From assembly GCA_022821735.1 (NCBI GenBank), contig JAJECZ010000372.1:1-38173 (forward strand): a stretch of 38,173 nt of DNA, in the 5' to 3' direction. A program made the translations under genes and the position numbers. Origin of the DNA: Alphaproteobacteria bacterium. GTDB taxonomy: Bacteria > Pseudomonadota > Alphaproteobacteria > Bin95. The notes under the pieces are model-generated. The model was not told where the DNA came from, ran no database searches, and saw nothing but the letters and a program-made list of their open reading frames with translations. Positions 15,885-33,946 of this stretch are shown here, one piece after another. How positions within the stretch are numbered: the stretch's first letter is position 1; each line of letters opens with the position of its first letter.

Positions 15885-15959
15885 GGGCCCGTAGCTCAAT
15901 GGCAGAGCGACGGTCTTTTAAGCCGCAGGTTCCGAGTTCGAGTCCCGGCGGGCCCTCCA
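15885..15959 (+). tRNA. tRNA-Lys (anticodon UUU) with encoded CCA.
   Basis: Hand-folded cloverleaf. The acceptor GGGCCCG/CGGGCCC is perfect and the D arm is GCTC-AATGGCA-GAGC. The anticodon loop is CTTTTAA and the T loop is TTCGAGT. There are two A-C mismatches, A27-C43 and A52-C62. Confidence 0.75.
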
Positions 15960-17234: not shown

Positions 17235-17816
17235 ATGGCGACGGAAAGCAAGAAACGCCTCAGCAAGATCGCCCGCCAGAAGCTGCGCATGCGCGATACG
17301 CTGTGGCCCGAACTTGACGAGGCGCGATTGTGGTCGCGCGAGCGGTCGGACGGCTGGCTCAGCATGCCACGGCCGATGCCGCTGCTCATGAAGGTCATGG
17401 ACAGCCTGTCCAAGGGTAAGCCGGTTTCCTCGACCTATCTCGACCTCTGGTGCCGGACTTACGACGACTCCTTCGTTATCGCCAACAAGGACCGCGAGAT
17501 GGCGTACTTCTCAGGGTTCAGCGGCGAGCGGGCCGTACGCACTTGGACAATGCGCATGCGAACCCTCAATGACCTCGGCTTTATCGATATCAAGAGCGGT
17601 CCGAACGGGCCGATCAGCTACGTCCTGATTTTCAACCCCTACCTCGTCGTGCGCCAACTCTATGAAGCCGGCCAAATCAACGAAACTTTCTTCAACTCCC
17701 TCGCCCAGCGGATGATCGAGATCGGCGCTCACGACCTCAGCGACGCGCCTGACGAGGAAGAGGCGAAACCCCCATCCGTCCGACGCCGTCGCCGCGCCGG
17801 AAAGGCAACAGCATGA
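17235..17816 (+). CDS. Hypothetical protein, possible winged-helix DNA-binding protein (cluster gene A).
   Basis: The ATG at 17235 has a strong Shine-Dalgarno sequence, in frame within track ORF 17046-17816. The segment GERAVRTWTMRMRTLNDLGFIDIKSGPNGPISYVLIFNPY resembles a helix-turn-helix plus beta-wing. The tail is basic (RRRRRAGKA). Confidence 0.75.
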   Translation: MATESKKRLSKIARQKLRMRDTLWPELDEARLWSRERSDGWLSMPRPMPLLMKVMDSLSKGKPVSSTYLDLWCRTYDDSFVIANKDREMAYFSGFSGERAVRTWTMRMRTLNDLGFIDIKSGPNGPISYVLIFNPYLVVRQLYEAGQINETFFNSLAQRMIEIGAHDLSDAPDEEEAKPPSVRRRRRAGKATA

Positions 17817-18079
17817 GCACAGAAAACAAGGAATCGAGCGCCGAAACGGATGACGACAATCCGGCCGACGCGACCAATGGTGGAGAACCTGCCGCGCCGC
17901 AGACCAACTTTGACCGGCTGATCGCGCATCTGCCCGAGGACAGCCTCGCCGCGAAACTCGTGACCGCCTACGCGGCGTCAGGCGAGGCAGCACCCGCCGA
18001 TGCCATCGCAGAGGTCGCCGCAAACCGTCTCGATGAACTGAAGCAGAGCCATGACAACACTGAAGATCAACAAGATTGA
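17813..18079 (+). CDS. Very acidic small protein (cluster gene B).
   Basis: 88 aa with about 20 Asp/Glu versus 5 Lys/Arg. It has an ATGA overlap with gene A and a 29-nt overlap with gene C. Confidence 0.55.
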   Translation: MSTENKESSAETDDDNPADATNGGEPAAPQTNFDRLIAHLPEDSLAAKLVTAYAASGEAAPADAIAEVAANRLDELKQSHDNTEDQQD

Positions 18080-20576
18080 GGTGCAGGGCTTCCGGGCTTT
18101 CGGCCGGAAGGCACAGACGCTGTCCTTCGGCTCGTCACTGGCCGCCATCTGGGCACCGAACAGCCAGGGCAAGACCAGCCTTGCCGAGGCGTTCGAGTTC
18201 CTGCTGACCGGACAGATCGTCCGTCGCCAGCTCTTGGCCAGCACCCAGGACGAATTCGCTGACGCCCTGCGCAACGCCCATATGCCAGCCGCCATACCCA
18301 CATACGTCGAGGCGGAGATCACCGGCATTGACGGCCGGACGCACAACTTCAGGCGGACACTGATCTCGGACTACGCCAAGCGGAAAGACTGCCAGTCAGC
18401 CCTGCAGATCGACGGCGTGGAGGCTAATGAAAGCGATCTCGCCACCCTCGGTATCGTGCTCTCGCAACCGCCCCTCGCGGCGCCGGTCCTCGCTCAGCAC
18501 ACGCTCGGTTATCTCTTTTCCGCCCGGCCGCAGGACCGCGCCACGTATTTCAAGAGGATCCTTGAAGTCACGGATCTGGAAGAACTGCGAGGCGCGGTGG
18601 CGGGGCTCGACGCCGGGTTCAAGCCCGATGACGGCGACCGCCACTTAAGCCGGCTTGCTGCTGCCGCAGCCATCGAGAACGCGGAGCCACTTCTAGCACC
18701 CCTCGGTTCGGCTGTGCCGGCGCCTGCCGTTCTCGCCGCCGCGGTCGATGGGGCGATCACAGCCGTCCTGACCGCGGCCGAGCACCCATTGCCGGCAGTG
18801 CCCGCCGAGCGTCTGGTTGCGCTCGAAGGCTTGTTGCTGGAGCGACGGGCCAAGACATTCCCGGTTGACGGGTTCGCCAGGAGAGCGCTCGTCAACTGGA
18901 CCGAACCTGCCCAAGGAGAATGGGACACGCTCGATGTCTACCTAGCCGAGCGCGAAACGGTGGAGGAGGAGACGCGCCGTCTGATCGCGCTGTTCAGGGA
19001 GGCCTTGGCCATCCCCGCTGTCAATGCCGCGACGCAGCCCATCGACTGCCCACTGTGTGGTACGGAAGGCAGCCTGACGCCGGAGCGCATCGCCTTTATC
19101 CGCACCCGGGCGCATGAGACCGACGACTTCCAGACCGCTGAGGCGGCAGCGATTGACACCCTGCGCGCCCTGGCCGTATCCGCCCGTGGGTTCGATCGGG
19201 CGGCCGCTTCCGCCTGCCCTCGCTTCCTCACCATCAACTCAAGCGAGCGCCGGCAGGAAGGTTTCCGCGTGGAGCGCATCCGAACGTTGCTGGAACCGGA
19301 TGCCTCGGCCGTCATCGATGCTTGGCTGAAGGCGCTACGCAACCTCGCCCGCGCGCGGGCGACCATTGACGCCACCGCCAGCGCTCTCGCGGCGGAAGTC
19401 GAGGGCTACGCGGAGAAACCGGACACTCTGCGCGATCCGCAACCCTTGAGGACTGGCTTTGGGAACGTCGCAACTGCTTACTCCAATTTCGCGATCCAGC
19501 TGGAGCTCTACGCCGATGCGGAAACAGCCCTCCTGGAAAGGCTTACGGTCGTCATCGACGCCGCCAGCGACACCAGCGGCTGGCAGGAGCTCATCGATCT
19601 CGCCGGCGATCAGGGCGCGCTTCGCGCGAGCCTGATCGAGCGCCAGGCCCGGGCTGACATGCATGGGGAGCTGAATTCGGCGCTGCGCCAGATCGACAAA
19701 GGCAACGAGAAGGTTCTGGAGGACAAATTTGCGAATCTGAGCGGCAGCATCCAACACTGGTGGGACCTGCTCCGCCCCGACGAACCAACATTCTTCTCCG
19801 CAGTCAAACCCCGCAAAGGCGCACGGCGCACCGTCGACTTCAAGGCCGGCCTGTCCCTTGACGCCGACCGAACTGCTCCGAAGTTGCGCGACGTCATCGC
19901 CGTATTCAGCCAGTCGCAGCTTCACTGCCTGGGCCTCGCACTGTTCATCGCCCGCGCACTGCACGAGGGTGCCGGCTTCATGGTGCTGGACGATCCGATC
20001 TTGGCGAGCGATGAAGATTACCGGGCCTATTTCAAAACTGACGTCTTGGAGGAACTGACCGGCGCCGGAATCCAGACAATCGTCCTCACCCAGGACCAGA
20101 AGACATGGAAGGACCTGGAGCATCGATATCTGCACAAGAACATCGACATGTTCCAGTTGGCCCTTACCGACCGGGCCGACGGCACAGCGGTCACCAATAC
20201 AGGCGATGACCTCATGGCGATGCTTGCCCGTGCCGACGTGCTAGCACGGGGCGATCACATCGAGCTTCGCAAGCAGGCGGGTGAATTGCTGCGCAATGCC
20301 GCCGAGCGTTTCTGCAAGGAAATGCTGGTCAGGGACCGGTGGGCCAAGGGCGACAGCGCCGCCGCGCTTAGCGACCATGATGGCAAGAATCTCGGGCAAC
20401 TCGAACCCAAGGTGGAGCCGCTGCTCACGGCCGACCCGTCGCATCCCGGAAAGCTTCGCTCGGTCGGGAGCCAGCTCAACCCCGCCAAGCACGACGATGA
20501 CACGCCGGACCGGGGCACCATCAAGGTCGCCCTCGGCGACTTGAAGTTTCTCAAGAAGCAGTACCTGCCCACATAG
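18051..20576 (+). CDS. SMC/Rad50/DndD-like ABC ATPase with a long helical insert and a CxxC hook (cluster gene C).
   Basis: 841 aa. The N-terminus is KIEVQGFRAFG with Walker A APNSQGKTS at 18150-18179. A mid-protein CPLCG lies at 19047-19058. The signature-like motif is FSQSQLHCLGLALFIA, Walker B is FMVLDDPILASD, and a ~190-aa C-terminal extension follows. Confidence 0.88.
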   Translation: MTTLKINKIEVQGFRAFGRKAQTLSFGSSLAAIWAPNSQGKTSLAEAFEFLLTGQIVRRQLLASTQDEFADALRNAHMPAAIPTYVEAEITGIDGRTHNFRRTLISDYAKRKDCQSALQIDGVEANESDLATLGIVLSQPPLAAPVLAQHTLGYLFSARPQDRATYFKRILEVTDLEELRGAVAGLDAGFKPDDGDRHLSRLAAAAAIENAEPLLAPLGSAVPAPAVLAAAVDGAITAVLTAAEHPLPAVPAERLVALEGLLLERRAKTFPVDGFARRALVNWTEPAQGEWDTLDVYLAERETVEEETRRLIALFREALAIPAVNAATQPIDCPLCGTEGSLTPERIAFIRTRAHETDDFQTAEAAAIDTLRALAVSARGFDRAAASACPRFLTINSSERRQEGFRVERIRTLLEPDASAVIDAWLKALRNLARARATIDATASALAAEVEGYAEKPDTLRDPQPLRTGFGNVATAYSNFAIQLELYADAETALLERLTVVIDAASDTSGWQELIDLAGDQGALRASLIERQARADMHGELNSALRQIDKGNEKVLEDKFANLSGSIQHWWDLLRPDEPTFFSAVKPRKGARRTVDFKAGLSLDADRTAPKLRDVIAVFSQSQLHCLGLALFIARALHEGAGFMVLDDPILASDEDYRAYFKTDVLEELTGAGIQTIVLTQDQKTWKDLEHRYLHKNIDMFQLALTDRADGTAVTNTGDDLMAMLARADVLARGDHIELRKQAGELLRNAAERFCKEMLVRDRWAKGDSAAALSDHDGKNLGQLEPKVEPLLTADPSHPGKLRSVGSQLNPAKHDDDTPDRGTIKVALGDLKFLKKQYLPT

Positions 20577-20859
20577 ACGTTTCCCGTCGACTTCCGCCTT
20601 CCGGCAAATGTCCTCTGCGATCTGCCGGTGCTTCTTGTCCGCCGTCAACCCGTCCGGCACTCTCCCGAGGACGTAATCCTCACACCCCGACCCCGCCCAC
20701 CATCACCAGCATGCCCTGCAGCGGTTCCAGCCCAACCCAATCCGCAGTCCCCAGCGGGGTATCGCCGCATTCACCCTATCCGATGGCACGGCAGCTACAT
20801 CGTGCAAGACACTTCCCAGCCCTGTATATGGACTATGGTCCGAATTCGGAGATTGATTG

Positions 20860-21876
20860 ATGGTCGCTGTAAAGCTTGTCGACATCAACCGCATTGTCCT
20901 CGATACCGAGAATCCCCGCATTAAGCATTTCATGGAGATGTACGACGAAGTCACAGACGTCGCCATGAAGCTGGCCCTGGGTGCCGGCGGCGATTCGGAC
21001 GACGAGGCGACCGCCCAAGACAAATATCGCCAGCTCAAACGTGCGATCAAGGAAACCGGCGGCGTCGTTCAGCCCATCATACTGAAAGACGACAACGACG
21101 GAACGTATCTTTGTATCGAAGGCAACACCCGAGTCGCCATCTACCGCGAGCTTGGCGAAGAATCTGCGCCAGGTGACTGGAACCAGATTCTGGCAATTGT
21201 CCATGACGAACTCACAGAACAGCAGGCCCACGAGATTCGCCTTCAAGTCCATCTTGTTGGCCCCCGCTCCTGGACACCCTACGCCAAGGGAAAATACCTT
21301 TACGAGCTCTGGCACCAGGACAAGATGCCCATGACAGAAATCCTCAGGGTCTGCGGCGGAACCGAAAAAGCCGTACAGACAGAAATAGCTGCGTTCGAAG
21401 ACATGGAGTCCTATTACCGACCAGTCGCCGAAGCAGACGGCTCTGAAATGTTCGATTACTCCCGGTTCAGTGCCTTTCGGGAACTGCAGCGAGTCAAGAA
21501 CAGCATCTACGAAGCGGGGAAATCTGAACAGGACTTCGCGGAGTGGGTTCACAAGGGGTTGCTTCGTCCCCAAGAAAGAGTTCGCGACCTACCACAGATT
21601 CTGAAGGATACGGAAGCAACACGGATTCTCCTCAAATCGGGCGCAAAAGAGGCCGTGCGATACCTCATATTGAAGGAGAGCGAGAGCGAATCGGTTACGT
21701 CGTTGCGCGATGCATCGATCGTCGAACTGGCTGCGGCACTTCGCCGGCGAGTCGAACGCCTGTCCTTCGACGAGTCCGTGCAAATCGCTACCTCGCCAGT
21801 ATCCCCCGAAATGCTAGAGCTCGATGCCTTGCGGCGAAGCATCGACACCCTGGCGGAAACGGCAGAGGAGGAATAG
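20860..21876 (+). CDS. ParB/Srx-fold N-terminal domain protein with HTH (cluster gene D, ParB-like 1).
   Basis: ENPRI lies at 20908-20922 and IEGNTRVAIY at 21115-21144 (EGNTR at 21118-21132). An HTH-like segment MTEILRVCGGTEKAVQTEIAAF lies downstream. The ATG at 20860 follows GGAG. Confidence 0.82.
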   Translation: MVAVKLVDINRIVLDTENPRIKHFMEMYDEVTDVAMKLALGAGGDSDDEATAQDKYRQLKRAIKETGGVVQPIILKDDNDGTYLCIEGNTRVAIYRELGEESAPGDWNQILAIVHDELTEQQAHEIRLQVHLVGPRSWTPYAKGKYLYELWHQDKMPMTEILRVCGGTEKAVQTEIAAFEDMESYYRPVAEADGSEMFDYSRFSAFRELQRVKNSIYEAGKSEQDFAEWVHKGLLRPQERVRDLPQILKDTEATRILLKSGAKEAVRYLILKESESESVTSLRDASIVELAAALRRRVERLSFDESVQIATSPVSPEMLELDALRRSIDTLAETAEEE

Positions 21877-21882
21877 CCACCT

Positions 21883-22308
21883 GTGGCGGAAGGCCCGGTT
21901 CACAGAGCGCTCGTGCATCGGTTGGAGATGGCCGTTTCCGCCGCTCTAGGCCCGACGGCGCAGGGCATCGTCGACCGCGATGGCGGATATCGAGATCCCA
22001 CGTGGATGATCGGCGGCGCGTTTCCGGACGTCCGCGCTTTCGGGCGGGGGTTCGAGATCATCGGCGAAGCCAAACCTCCAAACGACCTGGAAACCCCCAG
22101 GTCTCAGCGACAGATCGCGAAATTCGTGAGATATGTTGAGCAGCTAACCAACGCCCACCTCGTCTTGTCGGTTCAATGGCACAGCACGCCGACTGCATGG
22201 AACCTGTTGCGACGCTCTGCGAGTGACTGGCGCGTCGTGCGAAGCAAGGTCCATGTCCTCAACGGCCTCTCCGACTTGTCCCTCCGGACACACGCCGGTC
22301 ACGCATGA
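21883..22308 (+). CDS. Small putative PD-(D/E)xK nuclease-fold protein (cluster gene E).
   Basis: 141 aa with a GTG start 6 nt after gene D. The motif is FPDV (D at 22027-22029) then EIIGEAK (K at 22072-22074). It has an ATGA overlap with the SNF2 gene. Confidence 0.6.
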   Translation: MAEGPVHRALVHRLEMAVSAALGPTAQGIVDRDGGYRDPTWMIGGAFPDVRAFGRGFEIIGEAKPPNDLETPRSQRQIAKFVRYVEQLTNAHLVLSVQWHSTPTAWNLLRRSASDWRVVRSKVHVLNGLSDLSLRTHAGHA

Positions 22309-23762
22309 AGACTCGGTTCACTCCCCGTCTCGAGGCCAAGCACCGCCCGCTGTCCCACCAGATGGAAGCCTTGCACGTAGTGCGTGACCTAGAATTCGCT
22401 GCACTTTTTCACGAGCAGGGCCTCGGCAAGACCAAAATCGGTCTGGACCTCATTCTTTACTGGCTGGCGACGTCGGTCGCCGATTCCGTGGTCGTCGTGA
22501 CAAAAAAGCTCCTGGTACCCAACTGGGTCCGCGAAACAGACGCCCACACTCACCTGCGGCCCGTCGTGCTCGGCCAAAACAAGCGAGCGAACTACTGGGC
22601 CTTCAATACCCCCGCCCGGCTCTATCTAGCTCACTATGAAGTTATGCACACCGAGCGCACGCGGCTCTCCATGTTCGCCGACTCGCGGCGCCTGGCGGTA
22701 ATTCTCGACGAGGCGCAGCGCATTAAGAACCCCAACACCGCCCCTGCGAAGGCACTGCATTCCTTGGCTCACAAGCTTGTGCGCCGTGTCATCATGACGG
22801 GCACACCGGTCGCGAACCGGCCCTACGATATCTGGTCACAGGTCTACTTCCTCGACCAGGGACGAGCGCTCGGCACTTCGTTTTCTGCGTTCCAGAACAA
22901 TGCCGACCTAACACGCTCGGTCGCCGAACAACCTGAGTCGGCGCGTGCCTTCGAAAACAAGATCGCCGATGTCCCTGCCAAAATTCGGTCCTTCTCTGTG
23001 CGCGAGACCAAAGACAGCGCCGAACTCACGCTGCCGGAGAAAACCGTCAGGGACACTCCCGCCGGGATGGAGGAGGCGCAGAGGGCGCTTTACCAGCGCT
23101 ACAAGAGCCAGTTGCGGGCCGAGGTGCAACGGGACGGCGTCAAGACGCTCGACGATGCCGACCGTGTCCTCAAACGCCTCCTTCGCCTTGTCCAGGTCGC
23201 GTCCAACCCAGGACTGGTCGACGAGACCTATGGACATGAACCCGGCAAGCTAACGGTGTTAGACCGAATCCTTAGCAAGCACGAACCGGACCAGGCGAAG
23301 AAGATTGTCTGGACGGCATTCACGGACAATGTCGAATTGATCGCCCGCCGGTATCCGGAGCGCCGGCCTGCCCGCATCCACGGCCGCCGCACGATAGCCG
23401 ACCGCAATTCCGACATAGTTCGCTTCCTTGAGGAAGACAACTGCACCCTGCTCGTCGCCACACCGGGCTCGGCCAAGGAAGGTCTGACCCTCACCGTCTC
23501 GGACCATGCCATTTTCTTCGACCGATCCTTCAGTCTGGATGACTATCTGCAAGCTCAGGACCGCATTCACCGGATCTCCCAAACCCGTGAATGCGTGATC
23601 GAGAACCTGATCGCAACCGACACTGTGGACGAGTGGGTCAGCGCCCTACTGTCGGCGAAGGAGCTGGCAGCTGCCCTTGCACAGGGTGACCTCAGCCTTC
23701 CCGAGTACCGCGACCACGCCACTTACGACTTCGCGCGGACACTCGACGCGGTGCTCGCATGA
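22305..23762 (+). CDS. SNF2-family helicase/translocase, core only (cluster gene F).
   Basis: 485 aa. Motif I GLGKT lies at 22419-22433 and motif II DEAQ at 22707-22718. Motif III is MTGTPVANR and motif VI is QAQDRIHRISQ. Confidence 0.92.
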   Translation: MKTRFTPRLEAKHRPLSHQMEALHVVRDLEFAALFHEQGLGKTKIGLDLILYWLATSVADSVVVVTKKLLVPNWVRETDAHTHLRPVVLGQNKRANYWAFNTPARLYLAHYEVMHTERTRLSMFADSRRLAVILDEAQRIKNPNTAPAKALHSLAHKLVRRVIMTGTPVANRPYDIWSQVYFLDQGRALGTSFSAFQNNADLTRSVAEQPESARAFENKIADVPAKIRSFSVRETKDSAELTLPEKTVRDTPAGMEEAQRALYQRYKSQLRAEVQRDGVKTLDDADRVLKRLLRLVQVASNPGLVDETYGHEPGKLTVLDRILSKHEPDQAKKIVWTAFTDNVELIARRYPERRPARIHGRRTIADRNSDIVRFLEEDNCTLLVATPGSAKEGLTLTVSDHAIFFDRSFSLDDYLQAQDRIHRISQTRECVIENLIATDTVDEWVSALLSAKELAAALAQGDLSLPEYRDHATYDFARTLDAVLA

Positions 23763-23798
23763 ACGTCTGCTGCAACCACATTTTCAGGGGCTCATTGG

Positions 23799-24854
23799 AT
23801 GACTGAATACTATCGTATCGGTAAGTCGCAGATCCCGTACAGGCTCGAGGCCATTCCCATCGAGAGTGTAGCTTTCTACGCTGAGAATCCTCGAATCTAC
23901 TCCCAATTTTCTGCGACGGAGGAGCGCACCCAAGAGGCAATCCAAAAAAAGCTCGAAGCGATGGAACATGTGAAGACACTTCGTGCGCAAATTCATCGCG
24001 ATCAACAGGTCAATGAACCACTGTGGTGCATGCCGGTAGACCAAGACTCTCCATTGAGCGCCAGTTACGACTTCATAACGCTCGAAGGAAACAGTCGCCT
24101 CGCAGCGTTGAGAATGGAAACCAGAACACCCCCTCCTGTGACGACCGTGCCGTGCAACATTCTTGATCTCTCCTCCCTGACGGCCGTTCAACGCGAATCA
24201 TTCATCTTCAGTCTTCTCGGCCGCATTCACATCACGGGCAAGACCAACTGGCAAACCTACGAGAATGCTGCATACATCTACCGGAGATACAGATATCAGG
24301 GAGTATCCGCAGAAGATCTGGCCAAGGAATTGGTCGGCCTGACGCCCGCTAAAGTAAGCAATACCGTCAAGGCCTACGAACTGATGTCACAAAATGAGGA
24401 CACGAAGCCCGACCATTGGAGCTACTATGACGTCCTCGTCTCCGGTCGAAAGTGGCCCAAGCTTCGCGACACCTATCCTTCTCTTGATGCCATTCTGCTT
24501 CCCATGATTCGCAATGAGGAATTTCAGAGGGCGCAAGACATGCGCGACAAGATTCCCGTGATCATGCACAACAAACAGGCTCGCAGGCGGTTTCTGGAGG
24601 GCGACAGCGAGGAGCGTTTCGTTCATGCGCTGGAGATCGCTGAATTTGGCGGTGGAAGTAACACGGTACTTCGAAGGCTCGAGGCCTTTCAGCGTTTCCT
24701 GACGCAGGATGAGAACGAAGACGCCATCAAACAGCTCCTGGACGCTCAAGGAACGAAGGGCAAGGCGAAGTTCGCTCTCGACAAGATCTATGACGTGATG
24801 GCGCGTCTATCGCCTAAGGCTCAGAGACTCGCCGAACGCCGAAAGGGGCGCTGA
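23799..24854 (+). CDS. ParB/Srx-fold N-terminal domain protein with HTH (cluster gene G, ParB-like 2).
   Basis: ENPRI lies at 23883-23897 and LEGNSRLAAL at 24081-24110 (EGNSR at 24084-24098). The HTH-like segment is VSAEDLAKELVGLTPAKVSNTVKAY. It is a paralog of gene D. Confidence 0.82.
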   Translation: MTEYYRIGKSQIPYRLEAIPIESVAFYAENPRIYSQFSATEERTQEAIQKKLEAMEHVKTLRAQIHRDQQVNEPLWCMPVDQDSPLSASYDFITLEGNSRLAALRMETRTPPPVTTVPCNILDLSSLTAVQRESFIFSLLGRIHITGKTNWQTYENAAYIYRRYRYQGVSAEDLAKELVGLTPAKVSNTVKAYELMSQNEDTKPDHWSYYDVLVSGRKWPKLRDTYPSLDAILLPMIRNEEFQRAQDMRDKIPVIMHNKQARRRFLEGDSEERFVHALEIAEFGGGSNTVLRRLEAFQRFLTQDENEDAIKQLLDAQGTKGKAKFALDKIYDVMARLSPKAQRLAERRKGR

Positions 24855-24857
24855 GCG

Positions 24858-26543
24858 ATGAACATGCCCAAGAACGTCCTCTTGATCGAGCCCGGGTATC
24901 CGAATAAGTACCCGCCGCTTGGGCTTATGAAGATCGCCGCATATCACGGCGTTCGCGGACGCGGCGACAATGTCGTCTTCATCAAGGGTCCCGAACCCGC
25001 AGTCCTGGCGCAGCACTGGGACCGTGTATACGTGACCACGCTGTTCAGCTTCGAATGGAAGACGACAGCCAGAGCGATCGACTTTGCGATTGAGGCGGCC
25101 GCATACCAGTCGGAAAGGGTCTTCGTCGGCGGGATTGCTGCATCGCTGATGCACGACTCCTTCGTTTCCGAGCCCCGATGGGCGGGGGTACGATTCATCA
25201 AGGGACTTCTCGATGTATCGCCTGCGAGCGCGCTTAAGCTCTCCGCGGCCGATGGAGACTTCGGCGCCGACGATCTCCATGGCACACCAATCGAGGAGCT
25301 CGTACCCGATTACAGCATTCTCGACCAGATTGCCGACAGCTACACATATCCCGTCAACGATGCGTATTTCGGATACGCATCGCGAGGTTGCGTGCGCAAG
25401 TGCGCATTCTGCGGCGTACCCAAGCTCGAAGGCCGGCAGCGTGAGATGCCACCGCTCGCCCAGCTTGTCCGAGGTGTCTCGGACCATTATGGCGAGAAAA
25501 AGGATCTTGTCCTAATGGACAACAACATCACCGCGTCTTCCCGCTTCAAGGAGATCATGGCCGAAATCCGTGATTTGGGATTCACGCCAAACGCAACTTT
25601 GCTTCGGCCTAATGGGAGATCTGTCCGGCGGCGCGTCGATTTCAACCAGGGCGTCGATGCGCGCATTCTGGCCAAGTCCCCGATGTTTCTCAGGGAAATG
25701 TCCACGATTTGCATCAGCCCATTGCGGATCGCTTTCGATCATCTGGGCGTGCGCAAGGTGTATGAGGCCTCGGTCCGCATGGCAGCGGACAATGATATTC
25801 GATCCTTGTCGAACTACATGCTGTACAATTTCATGGACGATCCTGCGGATTTGTATCAGCGCATGCGGCTCAACATTGATCTCAATGAAGAGCTGGGGCT
25901 ACGGATATGGTCCTTTCCCATGCGATATCAGCCGGTCACCCTGAAAGAACGCACCCATGTGGGAAAGCGTTGGAACCGGTATTATCTGCGATCATTCCAG
26001 ATCATGCTCCAAGCGACCAGAGGAGTGGTTAGCGGCGCTCCAGACTTCTTCTCCAGGGCCTATGGTAATTCGCCCGAGGATTTCCAGCGGCTTCTGCGTC
26101 TGCCCCACGCCTTCATTTTCCATCGGGACTATTACGAGAATCCTGCCCGCGACGGCCGCGCCGTCATGGACGAGTATCTGGCGGCCCGGTCGAAGCTCTC
26201 TGTGAGCCAGGAACATGAGCTGGTAAGCCTGCTGGCCGGACCTCCCGAACAAAAGACGGTATCTCTTGTCCGATTCCGCAAGCTCGTATCGGACAGCACC
26301 GTGGACCGCCCGATCCGGGAACTTCTGCGATACCACTCTCTGGGAACCCAACACCCCCCCGGCGCCAACGCGAGAGTGGTCGAGCCTCTTTTCGACCGGC
26401 TCAATCCCGACCCGGTCCTGCCCGATGACGAGAGGGTGGAGGATGCCGGGCTCTTCGGACCAGGCGATCTGGACGGCGGACGAGTCGCGCCGCTCGGTGC
26501 GCGCTCCGGGCATCGCGCCTGGCGAGCCGCGGAGACCGGTTAG
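24858..26543 (+). CDS. Radical SAM enzyme with an N-terminal B12-binding-like (Rossmann) domain (cluster gene H).
   Basis: 561 aa. The CX3CX2C motif GCVRKCAFCG lies at 25389-25412. The N-terminus LLIEPGYPNKYPPLGLMKIAAYH...VFVGGIAAS is typical of radical SAM proteins with a B12-binding domain. The long C-terminal region is unassigned. Confidence 0.88.
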   Translation: MNMPKNVLLIEPGYPNKYPPLGLMKIAAYHGVRGRGDNVVFIKGPEPAVLAQHWDRVYVTTLFSFEWKTTARAIDFAIEAAAYQSERVFVGGIAASLMHDSFVSEPRWAGVRFIKGLLDVSPASALKLSAADGDFGADDLHGTPIEELVPDYSILDQIADSYTYPVNDAYFGYASRGCVRKCAFCGVPKLEGRQREMPPLAQLVRGVSDHYGEKKDLVLMDNNITASSRFKEIMAEIRDLGFTPNATLLRPNGRSVRRRVDFNQGVDARILAKSPMFLREMSTICISPLRIAFDHLGVRKVYEASVRMAADNDIRSLSNYMLYNFMDDPADLYQRMRLNIDLNEELGLRIWSFPMRYQPVTLKERTHVGKRWNRYYLRSFQIMLQATRGVVSGAPDFFSRAYGNSPEDFQRLLRLPHAFIFHRDYYENPARDGRAVMDEYLAARSKLSVSQEHELVSLLAGPPEQKTVSLVRFRKLVSDSTVDRPIRELLRYHSLGTQHPPGANARVVEPLFDRLNPDPVLPDDERVEDAGLFGPGDLDGGRVAPLGARSGHRAWRAAETG

Positions 26544-26565
26544 TCCATCTCGTTGAGGAAAGCCC

Positions 26566-28062
26566 ATGCCACTCGAAGAGCCACTGTCGACATTGGTCGG
26601 AGGGAACGTTCTGTCCTTGGTCACGGCGGGAATGTACGACGACCCTTTGGCGATCTACCGTGAATACATTCAGAACGCCGCTGATGCTGTCTCTCGTTCC
26701 AACCGATCGGGCCGCGTAGACATCACTATCGATCCCGTCGCGCGGCGCATTCGAATCCGCGACAACGGTCCGGGCCTTTCTCGAGCGGAAGCAACACGCT
26801 CCCTCGTAGTTGTTGCCGACAGTGACAAGACGCACGGTGTCGACAGGGGCTTCCGGGGCATCGGTCGATTGTCAGGCTTGGCCTGCGCCGAATTCGTGGT
26901 CTTCAGAACGCGATGCCGCTCTCGCAAGCGTATCACCCGCGTCGAGTGGGATGGCGTTGTAATGCGGACCAAGCTGCTCGACCGCGCAACCTTGGAGGAT
27001 ACGATCCGTAGTTGCGTTTCCGTCTCCTCTGAAGATGCAGGCGATTATCCCGAACATTTCTTCGAGGTTGAAATCCTTGGTGTCAGCCGACACGTCTCCG
27101 GCAGACTGCTGAACAGCGATGCCGTCAAGGACTATGTCTCCGAGGTGTGTCCGGTTCCGATATCGGACGATTTCCCCTTGGCTGACGAGGTGACCGGTTA
27201 CCTTCACGGCCATATCCTGGGTCCCCCGCTCGACATTCACGTCAACGGTGCTGAGGAAGCTCTTCGGCGCCTGCGCCATCCGGCAATCGCATTCTCGGAC
27301 GTCCATCATGAGGCCTTTGCCGAATTGGAGACATTCCAAGTCCCGGACGCCGAAGGTCGGGGGCTATCCGCTATTGGTTGGCTCGCTCATTCAGCCTACC
27401 TCGGCGCGATCCCGAAGAACCTTCGCCTCCGGGGAATCCGGGCTAGGTGCGGCAATATTCAGGTCGGCAGCGACACCGTGTTCGACCACTTGTTCCGAGA
27501 GGAACGCTTCAATCGCTGGTGCGTGGGCGAAGTCCACGTAATCGACCCGCGCATTCTCCCCAACGGGCACCGAACCTATTTCGAGAGCGGCCCGCGCATC
27601 CGAAATCTCGAAAATCACCTTTCCGCAATCGCGCACCAGGTTTCCAGTCGTTGTCGGCGCCATTCGTCCATTCGACATCGACAGCGACAAATGGCGTCGA
27701 AACTGGAGCGAGCAGAAAACGCCTTGGAAGCAGCAGTCAAGCTTATCGGTTCCGAACCCTCCGCAAGGGATTATGCTTGGCGGGTACTGGGCGCGGAGGC
27801 AGAAGCCCTCCGACGTCTACGCGCAGACACGCCGGTCTCGCAAATTGATTGCCCAGAAACACTAAACAGCCTTTCAACGCTGGAAGCGACCCTCTCGACG
27901 CGGACCAAGCAACTGAAACCGTCCTTCACACGACACATCGGCATTAGAAATCCCGGCGATGATCGTTGGAGAGTAGCCTTCGAACGTTTGGCCTCTGCTT
28001 GCGGCTCGCCTACGCTGGCTCTAACCGCTATTCAACACGCGTTTCTAGACACCGGCTGCTAG
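26566..28062 (+). CDS. GHKL (Bergerat-fold, MORC/Hsp90/MutL-like) ATPase (cluster gene I).
   Basis: 498 aa. Motif I is EYIQNAADA (Asn at 26674-26676), motif II is DNGPG at 26761-26775, and motif III is RGFRGIGRLSG. Confidence 0.86.
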   Translation: MPLEEPLSTLVGGNVLSLVTAGMYDDPLAIYREYIQNAADAVSRSNRSGRVDITIDPVARRIRIRDNGPGLSRAEATRSLVVVADSDKTHGVDRGFRGIGRLSGLACAEFVVFRTRCRSRKRITRVEWDGVVMRTKLLDRATLEDTIRSCVSVSSEDAGDYPEHFFEVEILGVSRHVSGRLLNSDAVKDYVSEVCPVPISDDFPLADEVTGYLHGHILGPPLDIHVNGAEEALRRLRHPAIAFSDVHHEAFAELETFQVPDAEGRGLSAIGWLAHSAYLGAIPKNLRLRGIRARCGNIQVGSDTVFDHLFREERFNRWCVGEVHVIDPRILPNGHRTYFESGPRIRNLENHLSAIAHQVSSRCRRHSSIRHRQRQMASKLERAENALEAAVKLIGSEPSARDYAWRVLGAEAEALRRLRADTPVSQIDCPETLNSLSTLEATLSTRTKQLKPSFTRHIGIRNPGDDRWRVAFERLASACGSPTLALTAIQHAFLDTGC

Positions 28063-28159: not shown

Positions 28160-29455
28160 TTATGCAGCTTCTACCATTTCATCAAATTGCTGTCTGCCAA
28201 TTCCACCCTTATTTACCAGTACGGTTTGAATCACCCTCTCTGATGCATGAAAAAAGCGTGCCGCCGCCGATATATCCTCTTCAGAAGGCACCTCTGTATT
28301 GATGTAAGATAACAGGTCCTCGTAAGGACAAAGAAGACTTTGCGCAAATGCTCGCTGAAATTTCTGCCGACCTGTCTTCGTCCTCGTTATAGGTCCTAAT
28401 GGATCGTTACCCGACCATATTGCATCACCCAAAGTGCGACACAACTCAAATCGACGCCCTTGGGCCCAGCGGGAACTCAACGCTACAACATTTCTATTCC
28501 CGTCTCCTTCCCGTAGGCGAAGACCATAATGAAGTCCGCCCGGTTCAGCATCCCTGCTGCGAAAGTGATCTTTAGAGACATTTAGCAATTCTGCCAAACG
28601 CGTATTTCTCAATGGTCCGTTGTCGGCACCCAATCCCCTACGTACTGCTGTAGCTGCCTCCTCGGCAACTTCCCAAATTGGTTTAGTGTATCGCTGTTTA
28701 ATGTCCCCCGCTGCGGCAATTGCGTCATGCAGCTCGCAAACTACTTTTGACTTCTTTGCGACCTTTATCTCTTCTGCCAGCGTGTCAGCAGATGTTTCTC
28801 CCTGACTGGCCACAATTGCCTCCTCAACTCCCTCATTCCCATAGCTTTCCAAATAACCCAGCAGTAGTTGGACTAGTTCACTCGGCGCGCGGTCGATATC
28901 GTATCCCAACTTAGCCTCTATTCGGCGCCATGTAGCCGCATTATCATCTACGCGCTCTTCTTTCAACGCCAAGAATTGCGCGTTCAACGCTACCTTGTCG
29001 TCCGAAGCCGCATCCACAGCCTTACTCAAAAACCGATCAACTGATGCTTCAAACTGATCTGCGCCTACAAAAACAAGAGCATCCTTAGTAAATCTCAGGG
29101 CAAAATTCATGCTGAGCGGATCACTACGGCAGGCGAGCCCGACTCGAGGGTCTTCACCCCAAATGCGAAGTCTTGGCCAAATGTAACCTCCGCCAATCGC
29201 CGAAAGCTCGTGGGCCAGACGCCAAGTCGGATCGACGTTGTCGGATACTATTGGTTCCCAACGTAGGCGCCACCAGTTATCCGTGATCCAAAACGCCAAT
29301 TGAACGGGCGGCGCTTGAAGATAGTCGTCAGCTTGATTTCCTCCATCTCGAACAAGTTCAGTGAAACAGACTTCACCTGATCGCAACGCTATATGCTGCG
29401 GCACTTCCCACGAGGACTCCGGTTCAGTCCGGATATCGAACTGGAAATCGGTCAT
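28160..29455 (-). CDS. Protein with a C-terminal ImmA/IrrE (COG2856)-like domain lacking the HEXXH motif.
   Basis: 431 aa. The C-terminal half fits the family template (AVRRGLGADNGPLRNTRLAELL...GRRFELCRTLGDAIW...QRAFAQSLLCPYEDLL), but CRTLGD sits where HELGH is expected. G+C is very low (26/60 at 28201-28260). Confidence 0.72.
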   Translation of the reverse strand: MTDFQFDIRTEPESSWEVPQHIALRSGEVCFTELVRDGGNQADDYLQAPPVQLAFWITDNWWRLRWEPIVSDNVDPTWRLAHELSAIGGGYIWPRLRIWGEDPRVGLACRSDPLSMNFALRFTKDALVFVGADQFEASVDRFLSKAVDAASDDKVALNAQFLALKEERVDDNAATWRRIEAKLGYDIDRAPSELVQLLLGYLESYGNEGVEEAIVASQGETSADTLAEEIKVAKKSKVVCELHDAIAAAGDIKQRYTKPIWEVAEEAATAVRRGLGADNGPLRNTRLAELLNVSKDHFRSRDAEPGGLHYGLRLREGDGNRNVVALSSRWAQGRRFELCRTLGDAIWSGNDPLGPITRTKTGRQKFQRAFAQSLLCPYEDLLSYINTEVPSEEDISAAARFFHASERVIQTVLVNKGGIGRQQFDEMVEAA

Positions 29456-29958
29456 CGCCGGAAACCGTAAAGCGTTTTACATTGTTGAACTGCTTGATGT
29501 GCTAGTTGGTTTCCGTGTACTTGGACCCAATCTCTGAATCGCCTGTATACCAGCACCGCTATCGGCTCGGTGCGTCGCACGGGGTAGCCATGATACTCTG
29601 TCTGTACAATGTTTGTAATCCTCCCCTCGTAAATCCAGCCGTTGTTTGCAACGGCCCAGATGATGCCATTTTCGCCGACTAGGCCAGCCTGTAAACCCCG
29701 GTGAATCATTGGGCGAATTAGAGGGATGTGAGCGGGTTGAAAATTGGCATCCCGGTCGCAGAGGGTGGCATCTCCTCTAGTACCCAAGAAAGGTTCGAGG
29801 CCATAGAGGTGGGGATTTTGCTTATGCTTAGAATATGGTTGGTAGATTATGTTTTGTTGCAATTGCGCGATGTAGGCCGGAGGAGGATTGGCCAACAGTC
29901 GGCGCTTCTCGTTGTTTGAGTGCCGAGCAGGTAGGTTGGATCTCGTTGCCGGTCGCAT
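29452..29958 (-). CDS. Hypothetical protein, family unassigned.
   Basis: 168 aa with an ATGA overlap onto the downstream gene. A conserved-looking core reads GIIWAVANNGWIYEGRITNIVQTEYHGYPV. G+C is low. Confidence 0.65.
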   Translation of the reverse strand: MRPATRSNLPARHSNNEKRRLLANPPPAYIAQLQQNIIYQPYSKHKQNPHLYGLEPFLGTRGDATLCDRDANFQPAHIPLIRPMIHRGLQAGLVGENGIIWAVANNGWIYEGRITNIVQTEYHGYPVRRTEPIAVLVYRRFRDWVQVHGNQLAHQAVQQCKTLYGFRR

Positions 29959-30320: not shown

Positions 30321-30596
30321 TCAGCCGCCGACGGCATTCCTGAGCGACCTGCCCGGCTTGAAGACGGGCACGGTCGAAGCCGCCACAGGCACATTTTCTC
30401 CCGTGCGGGGGTTGCGGGCGATGCGCGCCGGTCGCGCCCTGGTTCCGAAGCTGCCGAATCCGAGGCTTCGCACGTCCTCGCCATTTGCCAGGGCTTCGCC
30501 GATCACCTCGAACACGCCCTCCACCGCATCCTTCGCAGCCGCTTTCGTCATTCCCGTCCGGTCCGCGAGGCGCTCACCCAGTTCCGACTTGTTCAT
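30321..30596 (-). CDS. hup: HU/IHF-family nucleoid-associated DNA-binding protein.
   Basis: 91 aa from the ATG at 30596 within track ORF 30321-31025: MNKSELGERLADRTGMTKAAAKDAVEGVFEVIGEALANGEDVRSLGFGSFGTRARPARIARNPRTGENVPVAASTVPVFKPGRSLRNAV. Confidence 0.92.
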   Translation of the reverse strand: MNKSELGERLADRTGMTKAAAKDAVEGVFEVIGEALANGEDVRSLGFGSFGTRARPARIARNPRTGENVPVAASTVPVFKPGRSLRNAVGG

Positions 30597-30763
30597 CCCT
30601 GCACTCCCATGCTTGTCATCACCGGCCCGCTGTCCGCCTGAGTAGTATGTTGGGCCATTCTGCGCGATATGCCTCGCCTTGGGGTCGTCGCGCTTCCGCG
30701 CCATGAGCGGCACGTCCGGGAACGGCGTGTTACGGTCGCGGCGGCGTGTTGTCGGGGGGTGCG

Positions 30764-31189
30764 ATGCTGGACGACAGGGAACTCCTAGAGAAGCTTGCCA
30801 AGGTGGAAGCCCTGTTCCGGCGGGCCGCCAGTCCGGGGGAGCAGGCTGCTGCAGGAGCTGCGATGGACCGGCTGCGCGACCGGCTCGGCGCCTCCGACCG
30901 GGATGGCGGTCCGGAAACCGAACTCCAGTTCTCGCTGCCGGACGCCTGGTCGGTCCGGCTGTTCGTCGCCGTCTGCCGCAAACACGGCCTGCGCCCGTTC
31001 CGCTATGCGCGGCAACGGCGGACAACGGTGATGGTGCGCGCCCGCGAGCGACATTTCGATCGTGTGGTGTGGGCCGAGTTCAGCCACCTTCAAACCGAGC
31101 TCGAACTCTACTTCGAGGACGTTACCGACCATCTGATTACCCGCGCCATGGGCTCGGACGGCGACGACAGCAACATCGGGCAGCGGTAG
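30764..31189 (+). CDS. Hypothetical protein; the N-terminal helical segment is reminiscent of DUF2786-type proteins.
   Basis: The ATG at 30764 lies within track ORF 30746-31189 (LLEKLAKVEALFRRAASPGEQAAAGAAMDRLRDRL...). It is divergent from the HU gene. Confidence 0.6.
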   Translation: MLDDRELLEKLAKVEALFRRAASPGEQAAAGAAMDRLRDRLGASDRDGGPETELQFSLPDAWSVRLFVAVCRKHGLRPFRYARQRRTTVMVRARERHFDRVVWAEFSHLQTELELYFEDVTDHLITRAMGSDGDDSNIGQR

Positions 31190-32131: not shown

Positions 32132-33058
32132 TTAACAACGGCCCGACGGCGCCTCCCTTGCGTGCCGGTGCCTCAATACCGGCCCAAGCTTGGCATAGTG
32201 TCCGGCGTTGCTGTACTCGTCGTACCAGGTTCCGAGGTGAAGCTGGAGATCCGTCACGAAGTAATGCAAGAGCCGTGCGGAACTGACGATTGGCTCAAGG
32301 CCTTCTTCCTGCAGCGTTGTCCAACTCATCGTCTTCGCTGCGTCCTCGGAGGCCAGGTTGACCTCCGCGGCGACGCCGAGTTCCACACCATTTCCGCCCA
32401 TTCTTGCCGGAATACAAAGCGTCGCTGGCTCGTCGTCGTCCAAAATCAGTACCGATGCATTATTCGGTGCGATGCCGTTCGCCCGTAAATCGGCTTCCAA
32501 CTGCTTCACCTTGCAATCACCTTGTCCCAAGGCAATCAGGAAGTTGTAGCAACGATTGTTCCACTCCCTGCCGGTGATCGGTCTCGTCATCTCGGCCAGG
32601 GTCGCCTCATCTGACATCGTGCCGAACCGAAACCTGTTCGCGATCAACCGCCCTTTCTGCAGAGTCTCCATATCTTCTACGATCCGGCGGTAGCTTGTCA
32701 GAACATTGCCATGATCCCACCACGAAGCCTTGACCTCGCCGACGGCCGCAACCCATTCGACCCTCACCAGCTCGGTTTCCCCGTCATCTGCCTTGTGCAT
32801 GGTCGCGGCAGGAACATCCTTGACGACGATCAAATCCATCTGTCCTGACTTCATCCCATCCGCTCGAACCACGTGTCCGTGTGTCACCCGGTACAGCCCT
32901 CCGACGAGACTCCCGACAAGCTTCCTGACCGCCTGCTCCGGCCCATCCCCTCTCGCGCGGATGTTATTCCGTCCTCCCGTGGCCCTCGACCTGTTGCGAC
33001 TTACGAACAGCTCCTCCGCAATCGTCGCATAGAGTTCGTCCGGACTGTATGTATCCAT
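32132..33058 (-). CDS. PD-(D/E)xK nuclease-fold protein (resembles the DUF6602-type).
   Basis: 308 aa. The motif is SGQMDLIVV...AVGEVKAS (D...E-x-K). G+C is lower than in its neighbours. Confidence 0.7.
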   Translation of the reverse strand: MDTYSPDELYATIAEELFVSRNRSRATGGRNNIRARGDGPEQAVRKLVGSLVGGLYRVTHGHVVRADGMKSGQMDLIVVKDVPAATMHKADDGETELVRVEWVAAVGEVKASWWDHGNVLTSYRRIVEDMETLQKGRLIANRFRFGTMSDEATLAEMTRPITGREWNNRCYNFLIALGQGDCKVKQLEADLRANGIAPNNASVLILDDDEPATLCIPARMGGNGVELGVAAEVNLASEDAAKTMSWTTLQEEGLEPIVSSARLLHYFVTDLQLHLGTWYDEYSNAGHYAKLGPVLRHRHAREAPSGRC

Positions 33059-33457
33059 TTGCTCTTCTTTCCTGCTTCATCCACCGGGGCAACTTCATCC
33101 GGACGCCGTCATCGCCATCCGCATGGATCCATGAAATGATTCCGGCCGTTATCTCCGGTATCCGCGATGGCGCCCACGGCTTGCCCGGCAACGGAACGCG
33201 CCCCGGTTCAGCCCTCGACAGGGAGGCCGCTTGCCGGACCCCCCATTGAATCCGGCCGCCAAACTCCCCGCAAGACAGCTGCTGGTGTGTGCTTCATGAT
33301 CACCTCGCTATTGCGCCCCATGGCCGCGCAACGCGGACAGACGGTGCAGCGATATTTGCGACAGCATGGTAAGCGATGGAGTCGACGCCCCTCCCGACGG
33401 CATTGCGATGTGCCAAGTTGGCGGTGTCGGAAAGGCCAAGAAAGGACAGGGGCGTCC

Positions 33458-33946
33458 ATGGAACAGGTACGATCCGGCGAAAGGATACGGGGTTTTCTCG
33501 AACCGCATGACGGCTCGCCCAACGTGTTCTGCCATCTCAGCGTCGTCGAGGCGTCCGGGCGGGACACGCTGCCCCAGGGGGCCCTTGTGACCTGCGAGAC
33601 CGTGCAGGGCGACAGAGGATCCCAGGTTTCGTGGATCCTCGCGGTCGAAACGCCCGTCGAACCCCGCCTAGCGGCGCGCGGCCGTTCTCGCGACACGCAT
33701 TGCGCGGGTCCGCAGTCCGGTGCCCCGCCGACCTCCGGCCTGGAGTTGCCGGGCGCGGTCAAGTTCTACGATCCGGCGCGGGGTTTCGGCTTCGTCGTGC
33801 CGGACCGCGGCGGGCCCGAGATATTCGTCCATGCAAACGTGCCGTTGCGCTCCGGCATGGGAGACCTACTGCCCGGCCAGCGCGTCTTCGTCCGCGCCGA
33901 AAGCGTGCCGCGCGGGCTCCAGGCGACGGAGATAGAGCCGCTCTGA
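33458..33946 (+). CDS. Cold-shock-domain protein with tandem CSDs; the first CSD is split across two frames.
   Basis: The C-terminal CSD is intact (VKFYDPARGFGFVVPDRGGPEIFVHANV...). The first CSD has its strand-1/2 part WNRYDPAKGYG in track ORF 33366-33590. The remainder, FLEPHDGSPNVFCHLSVVEASG, is in this frame. Confidence 0.75.
   Translation: MEQVRSGERIRGFLEPHDGSPNVFCHLSVVEASGRDTLPQGALVTCETVQGDRGSQVSWILAVETPVEPRLAARGRSRDTHCAGPQSGAPPTSGLELPGAVKFYDPARGFGFVVPDRGGPEIFVHANVPLRSGMGDLLPGQRVFVRAESVPRGLQATEIEPL

Follow-up and report, generated by a model that had tools for sequence, protein, structure and literature searches.

Nine co-directional genes lie on the + strand between positions 17235 and 28062 of contig JAJECZ010000372.1 (assembly GCA_022821735.1, Alphaproteobacteria bacterium). 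The window analysed in this work was the whole 38,173-nt stretch, to which all coordinates refer, and the nine genes were labelled A to I in their order. A prediction made earlier from the letters of the stretch had taken all nine for one undescribed system of the modification/restriction type; it held for the last six genes, for which modification and defence are argued below, but not for its nine-gene scope. Judged by sequence comparison, D-I is a conserved, horizontally mobile six-gene unit, composed of an H-I core (a radical S-adenosylmethionine (SAM) enzyme and a GHKL ATPase) and a D-E-F-G block (two ParB-like proteins, a putative nuclease and an SNF2-family ATPase). As a six-gene, two-module system it had apparently not been described previously. 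Its features were the following:

20846..28046, + strand: mobile D-I unit, extent taken from DNA homology
20860..21876, + strand: gene D, ParB/Srx-fold protein 1, first gene of the D-E-F-G block
21883..22308, + strand: gene E, 141-aa putative PD-(D/E)xK nuclease
22305..23762, + strand: gene F, 485-aa SNF2-family ATPase/translocase
23799..24854, + strand: gene G, ParB/Srx-fold protein 2, paralogue of D, last gene of the D-E-F-G block
24858..26543, + strand: gene H, 561-aa radical SAM enzyme with an N-terminal Rossmann (B12-binding-like) domain, core gene
26566..28062, + strand: gene I, 498-aa GHKL ATPase with an Hsp90/paraMORC-like N-domain, obligate partner of H

The nine open reading frames (ORFs), their orientation and their tight packing were as originally described. 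ATGA overlaps joined A to B (17813-17816) and E to F (22305-22308), B and C overlapped by 29 nt (18051-18079), and the remaining gaps measured about 280 nt (C-D), 6 nt (D-E), 36 nt (F-G), 3 nt (G-H) and 22 nt (H-I). The mechanical ORF of D started at TTG 20857; the ATG at 20860, located behind a GGAG, agreed with the coordinates first predicted. All of the motifs quoted in the original prediction were found in the translations: APNSQGKTS, CPLCG and FMVLDDP in C; ENPRI together with EGNTR or EGNSR in D and G; PDV...GEAK in E; GLGKT, DEAQ, TGTP and QAQDRIHRISQ in F; CVRKCAFC in H; and EYIQNAADA, DNGPG and GFRGIGRLSG in I. The domain calls agreed with Pfam for C (SMC_N/AAA_23), F (SNF2-rel_dom and Helicase_C) and I (HATPase_c_3). 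Sub-threshold Pfam matches were obtained for D (ParB_N) and H (Radical_SAM), and none for A, B, E and G.

Proteins of the D-I unit

H is a very divergent member of the radical SAM superfamily. Its CxxxCxxC motif (C178, C182 and C185) was invariant or nearly so in 16 close and 48 diverse homologues, and Pfam PF04055 scored 21.0 bits (cut-off 29.5) over residues 175-240 only. The AlphaFold2 model built from the 48 diverse homologues reached a predicted local distance difference test (pLDDT) value of 87, compared with 44 when 16 near-identical sequences were used. It contained a partial TIM-barrel core and was aligned by Foldseek, with a probability of 1.0, to many radical SAM structures; the best folds were MgmA, TsrM, MiaB, OxsB, CysS and TokK, and also RimO, with template modelling (TM) scores of 0.43-0.58 and, in the case of the class-B enzymes, E values of 1e-11 to 1e-6. 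Residues 1-100 followed the strand-helix pattern of a Rossmann domain in the model; the class-B domain was recognised by this fold only, the family PF02310 not being matched.

Judged by this model, H probably has the architecture of the cobalamin-dependent class-B enzymes and may bind cobalamin. MgmA, TsrM, OxsB, TokK and CysS have, like H, an N-terminal Rossmann domain followed by a CxxxCxxC barrel, although the likeness in sequence was limited to the cluster loop and the TM-scores were low, as given above. The similarities found in a sequence search of the PDB were likewise restricted to the Fe-S cluster loop, and a scan of the window and of four related loci gave no cobalamin riboswitch. 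To our knowledge, linkage to DNA enzymes or to a GHKL protein does not occur among the known class-B enzymes. Two functions were ruled out for H: that of a methylthiotransferase of the MiaB/RimO type, because the auxiliary-cluster cysteines are lacking (no conserved cysteine beyond C178, C182 and C185 in the diverse alignment, and no TRAM match), and that of a peptide maturase or metabolic enzyme, because its neighbours were consistently DNA enzymes and not the metabolic or peptide-maturation operons which the original prediction had named as a counter-indication. The best viral matches of H were phage COG1032-type proteins, and the phage family phrog_9298 (PHROG) was matched at 1e-37.

The disordered C-terminal tail of H contains the sequence VEDAGLF (26430-26450, residues ~525-531), which was invariant in the clade of at least 64% identity only. 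Speculatively, it resembles the docking motifs of the QL(S/D)LF type that bind sliding clamps.

I encodes a GHKL ATPase in which all of the family motifs were present, E33/N37, D66xGxG and GFRGxGRL being invariant; HATPase_c_3 scored 29.2 bits (Pfam, cut-off 25), and the closest PDB sequences were HtpG/Hsp90 N-domains (1e-12 for the HtpG N-domain).

In the D-E-F-G block, D and G were weak paralogues (22% identity, E value 2e-6) with NPR and EGN(S/T)R in common. These motifs were invariant in 18-57 orthologues and suggest membership of the ParB/Srx fold, ParB_N being sub-threshold for D and unmatched for G. In D, NPR and GNTR were invariant across 53 orthologues, and a weak Noc/ParB match was obtained in the PDB; G gave weak matches to PD-Lambda-5_A and PDC-M38A (PADLOC) and matched phrog_3694 at 1e-10. 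E is, as far as its motifs indicate, a PD-(D/E)xK nuclease: H7, P48-D49, E62-A63-K64 and Q77 were invariant across 26 diverse orthologues, nine of which weakly matched an AHJR-like restriction endonuclease (REase), and D and F stood on either side of E in all of the 53 loci. Sequence searches of the PDB with E and G gave noise only. F has the sequence features of a complete SNF2 motor (SNF2-rel_dom 5e-27, 95.1 bits, cut-off 24.9; Helicase_C 1e-11, 45.5 bits, cut-off 23.5), and the PADLOC models ZorD, DpdE and DrmD matched its helicase core only. The catalytic motifs of all six proteins, D to I, were intact and invariant.

Distribution, mobility and partner exchange

Mobility of the unit was most evident from a second contig (MKWU01004103.1, locus L180), which carried D-I at 89.3% identity over 7204 nt (blastn). 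The homology ended at 20846 and 28046 of the window and the flanks were unrelated; the six proteins were 83-95% identical, and this copy was preceded by genes for proteins of 192 aa, 278 aa and 747 aa, the last of them UvrD-like. Relatives of H were abundant: more than 7,850 in a 90%-clustered protein collection, the best 120 of them all at least 69% identical, and 256 clusters with E values below 1e-30 in an exhaustive search of representatives. The genome census was made in 185,579 GTDB species genomes (hidden Markov model and tblastn searches) and considered the best 80 of the 556 stretches encoding an H relative; such stretches were patchily distributed over ~0.3% of the species. The best 80 loci came from more than 10 phyla, including Chloroflexota, Gemmatimonadota, Binatia, Latescibacterota, Nitrospirales, Poribacteria, Acidimicrobiia, Acidobacteriota, Thermodesulfobacteriota, and Alpha- and Gammaproteobacteria, and many of the carrier lineages bear sponge-symbiont names (Poribacteria, Poriferihabitaceae, Spongiihabitans). 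The H clade nearest to the window was concentrated in sponge-associated metagenome-assembled genomes of more than 10 phyla, with 64-74% protein identity, suggesting recent cross-phylum transfer within one habitat.

H and I were adjacent in 79 of the 80 loci, often with overlapping genes, and the complete D-E-F-G block was present in ~53, in the order D-E-F-G-H-I, H-I-D-E-F-G or inverted. Bare H-I or H was found in 1-2 loci only. The other loci offered different companions: a NurA-like 361-aa protein, a 565-aa protein and a second GHKL protein upstream of H-I (13 loci); an extra GHKL protein of 620 aa with a PP_RS20740-like pair (~11 loci); DndB/DGQHR-like proteins (~8 loci); and PIN-like proteins with a GHKL protein, or DndB/DpdB-like proteins with or without HEPN. 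In many variants, a DpdB-like DGQHR gene stood directly before H. The six-gene layout was kept down to 38-46% identity of H (L092). Across the 37 loci that have the full set of six genes, median identities to the window were 70% (H), 49% (F), 45% (I), 38% (D), 32% (E) and 32% (G).

Among 72,556 plasmids, 12 carried H, and precisely these 12 carried I; D was present on 7 of them and never without H/I. The carriers included cultured Novosphingobium aromaticivorans DSM 12444 (pNL1, SARO_RS17510-17535) and Rhizobium leguminosarum WSM1325 (pR132505, RLEG_RS34120-34150), together with cultured Bradyrhizobium, Mesorhizobium, Agrobacterium and Roseomonas. The gene of Saro_3948, a ParB-HEPN fusion listed in PMC3710099, adjoins the pNL1 copy of the system and was the only literature trace found. 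A group II intron (RF00029) with a reverse transcriptase lay ~5 kb upstream of that copy (L094, 2018-2102).

IMG/VR contained six full copies of D-I, and in 11 loci the NurA-like and 565-aa proteins accompanied GHKL and H. Many short and distant H-like genes were also found in phage contigs, where homologues occurred without I. In Marinitoga camini virus 1 (L100, 6998-10824), an H-like radical SAM gene (30% identity) adjoined HerA- and NurA-type genes, echoing the variant with NurA-like, 565-aa, GHKL and H proteins seen in 13 genomes. One further IMG/VR contig (L267, 8622-13877) carried a radical SAM gene (24% identity, CIRQCAFC) overlapping the start of a D-E-F-G block; a GHKL partner was not detectable there, and an S24 peptidase-domain protein was encoded downstream.

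The surroundings of D-I included integrases, toxin-antitoxin (TA) pairs, type III restriction-modification (R-M) genes, CBASS SMODS genes, TmtA and conjugative plasmids. In the neighbourhood comparison proposed with the original prediction, the D-I genes kept each other's company in unrelated genomes; they were carried by mobile elements and had defence genes as neighbours. In a Gemmatimonadaceae copy (L005/L012, 13480-16881), a 1129-aa homologue of TmtA (Tiamat; PADLOC 1e-91) was encoded directly downstream of I.

The D-E-F-G block was also followed on its own, in a scan of metagenomes seeded with D. This gave 80 loci, 27 of which were decisive (at least 4 kb upstream and at least 6 kb downstream). 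H was present in 23 of the 27, often in the order D-E-F-G-DGQHR-H-I, and the DGQHR protein matched the PADLOC model of DpdB. The D-seeded matches from other metagenome samples were mostly of this seven-gene variant with a DGQHR/DpdB-like gene. In the four decisive loci without H (the near-duplicates L236 and L244, L238 and L258), and likewise in the truncated L242, D-E-F-G sat inside Dam-type cassettes of two forms: D12 methylase, N6_N4 methylase, D-E-F-G and DpnII endonuclease; or D12 methylase, a DUF6996/6997/7226 protein, D-E-F-G and PIN_12. Such methylases were not found in any of the D-seeded metagenome loci that had H. Since the Dam cassettes were confined to loci in which H-I was missing, D-E-F-G appears to have one of two partners, classical DNA methyltransferases or H-I.

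A proposed DNA mark, its alternatives and related systems

The reading preferred here, to which a probability of about 0.5 was given, is that H-I writes a new mark on DNA and D-E-F-G restricts DNA that does not carry it. GHKL proteins of the MutL, MORC and Hsp90 types dimerise in an ATP-dependent way; I would do so on DNA and position H there. H would cleave SAM reductively, and the resulting 5'-deoxyadenosyl radical would install a covalent mark on the host DNA, most likely a C-methyl group if cobalamin is bound. D and G may be nucleoside triphosphate-gated DNA clamps or readers of the mark; the SNF2 motor F would translocate, and the putative nuclease E would cut DNA without the mark and spare marked DNA. 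We infer that H acts on DNA, and likewise what the mark is chemically, what the ParB-like proteins do and that the unit protects against phages or plasmids; D-I would then belong to the modification-restriction kind of system.

This reading was drawn from features shown in this work: the genes are linked, modular and mobile, their catalytic motifs are intact, the modelled fold of H is that given above, and DNA methyltransferases replace H-I. H and I were adjacent and co-occurred, and D-E-F-G behaved as a block. Beside D-E-F-G, H-I was exchanged for DNA methyltransferases; elsewhere it was joined to other nuclease-type modules and was hardly ever alone. The architecture survived divergence, with invariant catalytic motifs and with H as the most conserved protein. 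The context was mobile and defence-related, and H-like proteins were encoded by phages, which are known to encode orphan DNA-modifying enzymes. As originally predicted, the radical SAM enzyme was the only candidate for the modifying chemistry.

Several points weigh against the reading. We know of no radical SAM enzyme that writes a self-mark on DNA, and the substrates of the closest folds are protein (MgmA, RimO), RNA (MiaB) or a free amino acid (TsrM), OxsB, TokK and CysS acting on nucleotides or small molecules. The TM-scores to these folds were modest (0.43-0.58), and a DNA-binding domain was not recognisable in H. The Dam cassettes amounted to ~4 independent loci, and D-E-F-G within a complete DpnII R-M cassette may be an autonomous system that favours R-M neighbourhoods.

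A bolder version, possible and yet somewhat doubtful, is that H, aided by I, is the first radical SAM enzyme, probably cobalamin-dependent, to write an epigenetic self-mark on DNA. The modification would be chemically new, such as C-methylation at an unactivated carbon or a change of the backbone, and would be read by a ParB-like/SNF2/nuclease module that also pairs with Dam-type methylation. This would be a new class of immunity, present in more than 10 phyla and particularly common in lineages of sponge symbionts.

Two alternatives were each considered unlikely, to the same degree. H-I might be the effector or small-molecule arm of a defence system, making a toxic or chain-terminating nucleotide analogue or, once triggered, damaging nucleic acids by radical chemistry, with D-E-F-G and the other companions as sensors or co-effectors. 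Viperin and OxsB are makers of nucleotide analogues, OxsB being a B12-dependent radical SAM enzyme of an antiviral nucleoside; OxsB was among the fold matches of H, the combination of a constant core and changing accessory modules would likewise suit an effector with its sensors, and H-like genes occur in phages. However, no phosphohydrolase, kinase or nucleotide-handling partner was conserved with H, the obligate partner is a GHKL ATPase of the DNA type, and the variable modules consist of nucleases and helicases, which are effector-like and not sensor-like. Besides, it is DNA methyltransferases that replace H-I next to D-E-F-G, and H was the slowest-evolving protein, whereas effectors usually evolve fast.

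The other separates D-E-F-G from H-I (with or without DGQHR): each would be an autonomous defence system, and the two would be co-selected and co-transferred within defence islands with no common mechanism. It would account for D-E-F-G without H-I in 4 of the 27 decisive loci, for H-I with other modules in ~27 of the 80 census loci, and for the variable order and orientation of the blocks. The linkage (~53 of 80 and 23 of 27) was nevertheless far above co-occurrence at the level of islands; the genes were mostly co-directional, with typical gaps of 3-45 nt, and moved jointly at 89% nucleotide identity with sharp borders; D never occurred on plasmids without H/I; and a methyltransferase module filled the same neighbourhood where H-I was missing.

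Less probable again is that H modifies protein or RNA, for example by maturing the GHKL ATPase or a ParB-like partner, or that I is an Hsp90-like chaperone for H. The best fold of H was a protein glutamine C-methyltransferase (MgmA), followed by tRNA/protein methylthiotransferases, the nearest PDB sequence relatives of I were HtpG/Hsp90 N-domains, and H and I were strictly co-inherited. Against this stand the missing auxiliary-cluster cysteines and TRAM domain, which leave no methylthiotransferase, the conserved neighbours, all of them DNA enzymes, the phage homologues of H without I, and the methyltransferase substitution, which favours a mark on DNA. A role outside immunity, in the housekeeping of mobile elements (partition, repair, replication-coupled processing or anti-restriction), was judged very unlikely. 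The unit did occur on plasmids, on islands resembling integrative and conjugative elements and on IMG/VR contigs, and ParB-like and GHKL proteins also serve segregation and repair; but ParA or parS-type context was absent, D and G are of the DndB/DpdB type and not partition ParBs, the distribution was patchy (~0.3% of species), and the neighbours were R-M, TA, CBASS and Tiamat genes.

With respect to known systems, none of the Dnd, Ssp, Dpd, BREX, DISARM, Zorya, Wadjet and Lamassu systems was matched by A-I (PADLOC and NCBIfam models). This agreed with the original prediction, in which no Dnd/Ssp/Dpd-type signature enzymes had been seen; the PADLOC and Pfam runs that it had proposed gave matches to generic domains only, such as helicase and ATPase cores. 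A radical SAM and GHKL system with ParB-like and SNF2 partners was not found described in the open full-text literature, recent closed-access papers lying outside the search.

The nearest relatives in logic were Dnd/Ssp and Dpd, which like D-I are multi-gene and mobile and combine a modification core with interchangeable restriction modules. Their core is helped by a ParB-like DndB or DpdB, and D-I variants often carry a DGQHR/DpdB-like gene beside H; Dpd restriction modules include the SNF2-type helicase DpdE, whose model matched the helicase core of F only. In contrast, DndA, DndC, DndD, DndE and SspA-D were all unmatched in the nine proteins, DpdA (a tRNA-guanine transglycosylase) was missing, and DpdB-like proteins were encoded in relatives, not in the window. 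Dnd/Ssp and Dpd lack the radical SAM and GHKL pair, and the candidate modifying enzyme of D-I is the radical SAM protein.

The MORC/paraMORC R-M operons consist of a GHKL ATPase, an SNF2 helicase and a REase-fold nuclease on mobile islands (Iyer, Abhiman & Aravind 2008, PMC2292703); the GHKL module was proposed to loop or clamp DNA, the operons carry DNA methyltransferases, and radical SAM enzymes and ParB are not mentioned (PMC2292703). D-I resembles them in its GHKL protein with intact Bergerat-fold motifs, its SF2 helicase (F) and its putative REase-fold nuclease (E), but the position of the methylase is taken by a radical SAM enzyme and two ParB-like proteins are added; no DNA methyltransferase domain was detected in A-I (Pfam). 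DpnII-type Dam cassettes are the alternative home of D-E-F-G, the methyltransferases and H-I occupying equivalent positions without homology.

If the preferred reading is true, radical SAM chemistry would join methyltransfer, phosphorothioation and deazaguanine exchange as a route of DNA self-marking, and a new natural DNA modification would bear on sequencing-based epigenomics, on the genetic tractability of the carriers and on enzyme discovery. The unit also offers a case of modular evolution, with an invariant core and swappable nuclease arms, one of which is common to Dam/DpnII cassettes, and a marker of gene flow, H at ~70% identity across phyla pointing to intense exchange among lineages with sponge-symbiont names. 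The cultured carriers make the mark-and-restrict reading directly testable.

Neighbouring genes and the genomic island

Three genes precede D-I on the same strand:

17235..17816, + strand: gene A, 193 aa, family not recognised, at most part of the B-C module and outside D-I
17813..18079, + strand: gene B, 88 aa, acidic, low-complexity, conserved partner of C
18051..20576, + strand: gene C, 841-aa SMC/Rad50-like coiled-coil ABC ATPase with a CPLC zinc-hook-like motif

Sequence comparison indicates that A-C (or B-C) is a unit separate from D-I, the two lying ~250 nt apart. No homologues of A, B or C were found in the 80 H-bearing genome loci (tblastn with all nine proteins as queries). B-C recurred without D-I: in L096, L097 and L098, a B-like gene overlapped the start of a C homologue and D-I was not present. 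DNA homology to the B-C locus L096 covered window positions 17790-20597 only, so that homology broke between C and D, at 20597/20846. Instead of one nine-gene system, or of the split into A-C, D-F and G-I offered originally as a fallback, the evolutionary units were (A)B-C, D-E-F-G and H-I. That all nine genes form one system, with the SMC-like ATPase C working with D-I, is hardly credible: the co-directional, tight packing in this window and the modification/restriction genes adjoining B-C homologues elsewhere would suit it, but homologues of A, B and C were absent from the 80 H-bearing loci, the upstream genes differed at the closely related copy of D-I and DNA homology ended at 20597/20846.

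The start of A at 17235 was chosen as the first ATG, the ORF holding A running upstream to 17046. A had no match in Pfam, PADLOC, NCBIfam or PHROG, and just its C-terminal 42 aa recurred, upstream of B-C in L098; B had no match in Pfam, PADLOC or PHROG. The family of C comprised 372 homologues, mainly from Alphaproteobacteria, and C was unmatched in the collection of 72,556 plasmids. In three genomes, its homologues had R-M neighbours: MmeI-like; N6_N4 methylase with a 1047-aa protein; and Dcm with HindVP. The B-C pair (17790-20597) was separately mobile and conserved, and stood directly beside modification/restriction genes in all four contexts seen, one of them being D-I. The pair may form a module, uncharacterised to date, that serves defence or is accessory to R-M.

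C shares with Lamassu, Wadjet and PbeC a coiled-coil SMC/Rad50-like ABC (ATP-binding cassette) ATPase, a small partner protein and defence neighbourhoods. The PADLOC models LmuB, GajA, PtuA and PbeC aligned to its N-terminal ~110 aa only. Lamassu, Wadjet and Pbe readings of A-C were rejected, their partners not being found and the model matches being N-terminal only. In the case of Lamassu, LmuB aligned to residues 4-111 of C, LmuA was not found, and A and B were unmatched. The Wadjet-like reading raised in the original prediction was not borne out, since no Jet model was matched by any of the nine proteins (no JetC match and no JetA/B/D-like partner; PADLOC). The PbeABCD/CxC ABC-ATPase family has a CxC zinc hook, a DndE-like partner and the HKD-helicase PbeA (PMC10853773), whereas the hook of C is CPLC (CxxC), PbeC matched the N-terminus only (2e-5), PbeA matched the helicase core of F only (8.7e-5), and no HKD domain or DndE-like protein was found in A-I.

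The lowered G+C content reported originally was confirmed, with values of 0.50-0.65 across ~16-33 kb against 0.67-0.75 in the flanks. The low-G+C stretch, which begins just after a tRNA-Lys gene (15885-15959), bears the signature of a genomic island; neither an integrase nor att-type direct repeats of the tRNA-Lys end were identified in the window. A scan for promoters and terminators between 16 and 30.2 kb gave fewer matches than in shuffled sequences, and the only RNA genes found in the window were tRNAs.

Downstream of D-I, the - strand carries a two-gene operon (28160-29958, 4-nt overlap) with the lowest G+C of the island (0.50). Its products are a 431-aa protein, in which an IrrE/M78 peptidase domain was weakly matched, and a 168-aa protein that matched nothing. 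A DUF6602 protein with a match to PD-DExK/NucC-like nucleases is encoded in the same island (32132-33058, - strand), and a DUF6602 gene was likewise found just upstream of the H-bearing system of a Dehalococcoidia genome (L008, 8324-9052). The right side of the low-G+C region contains genes for an HU-type DNA-binding protein with an N-terminal extension of ~140 aa (30321-31025, - strand), a protein with two cold-shock domains (33167-33946, + strand) and tRNA-Ser(CGA) (34537-34626, - strand).

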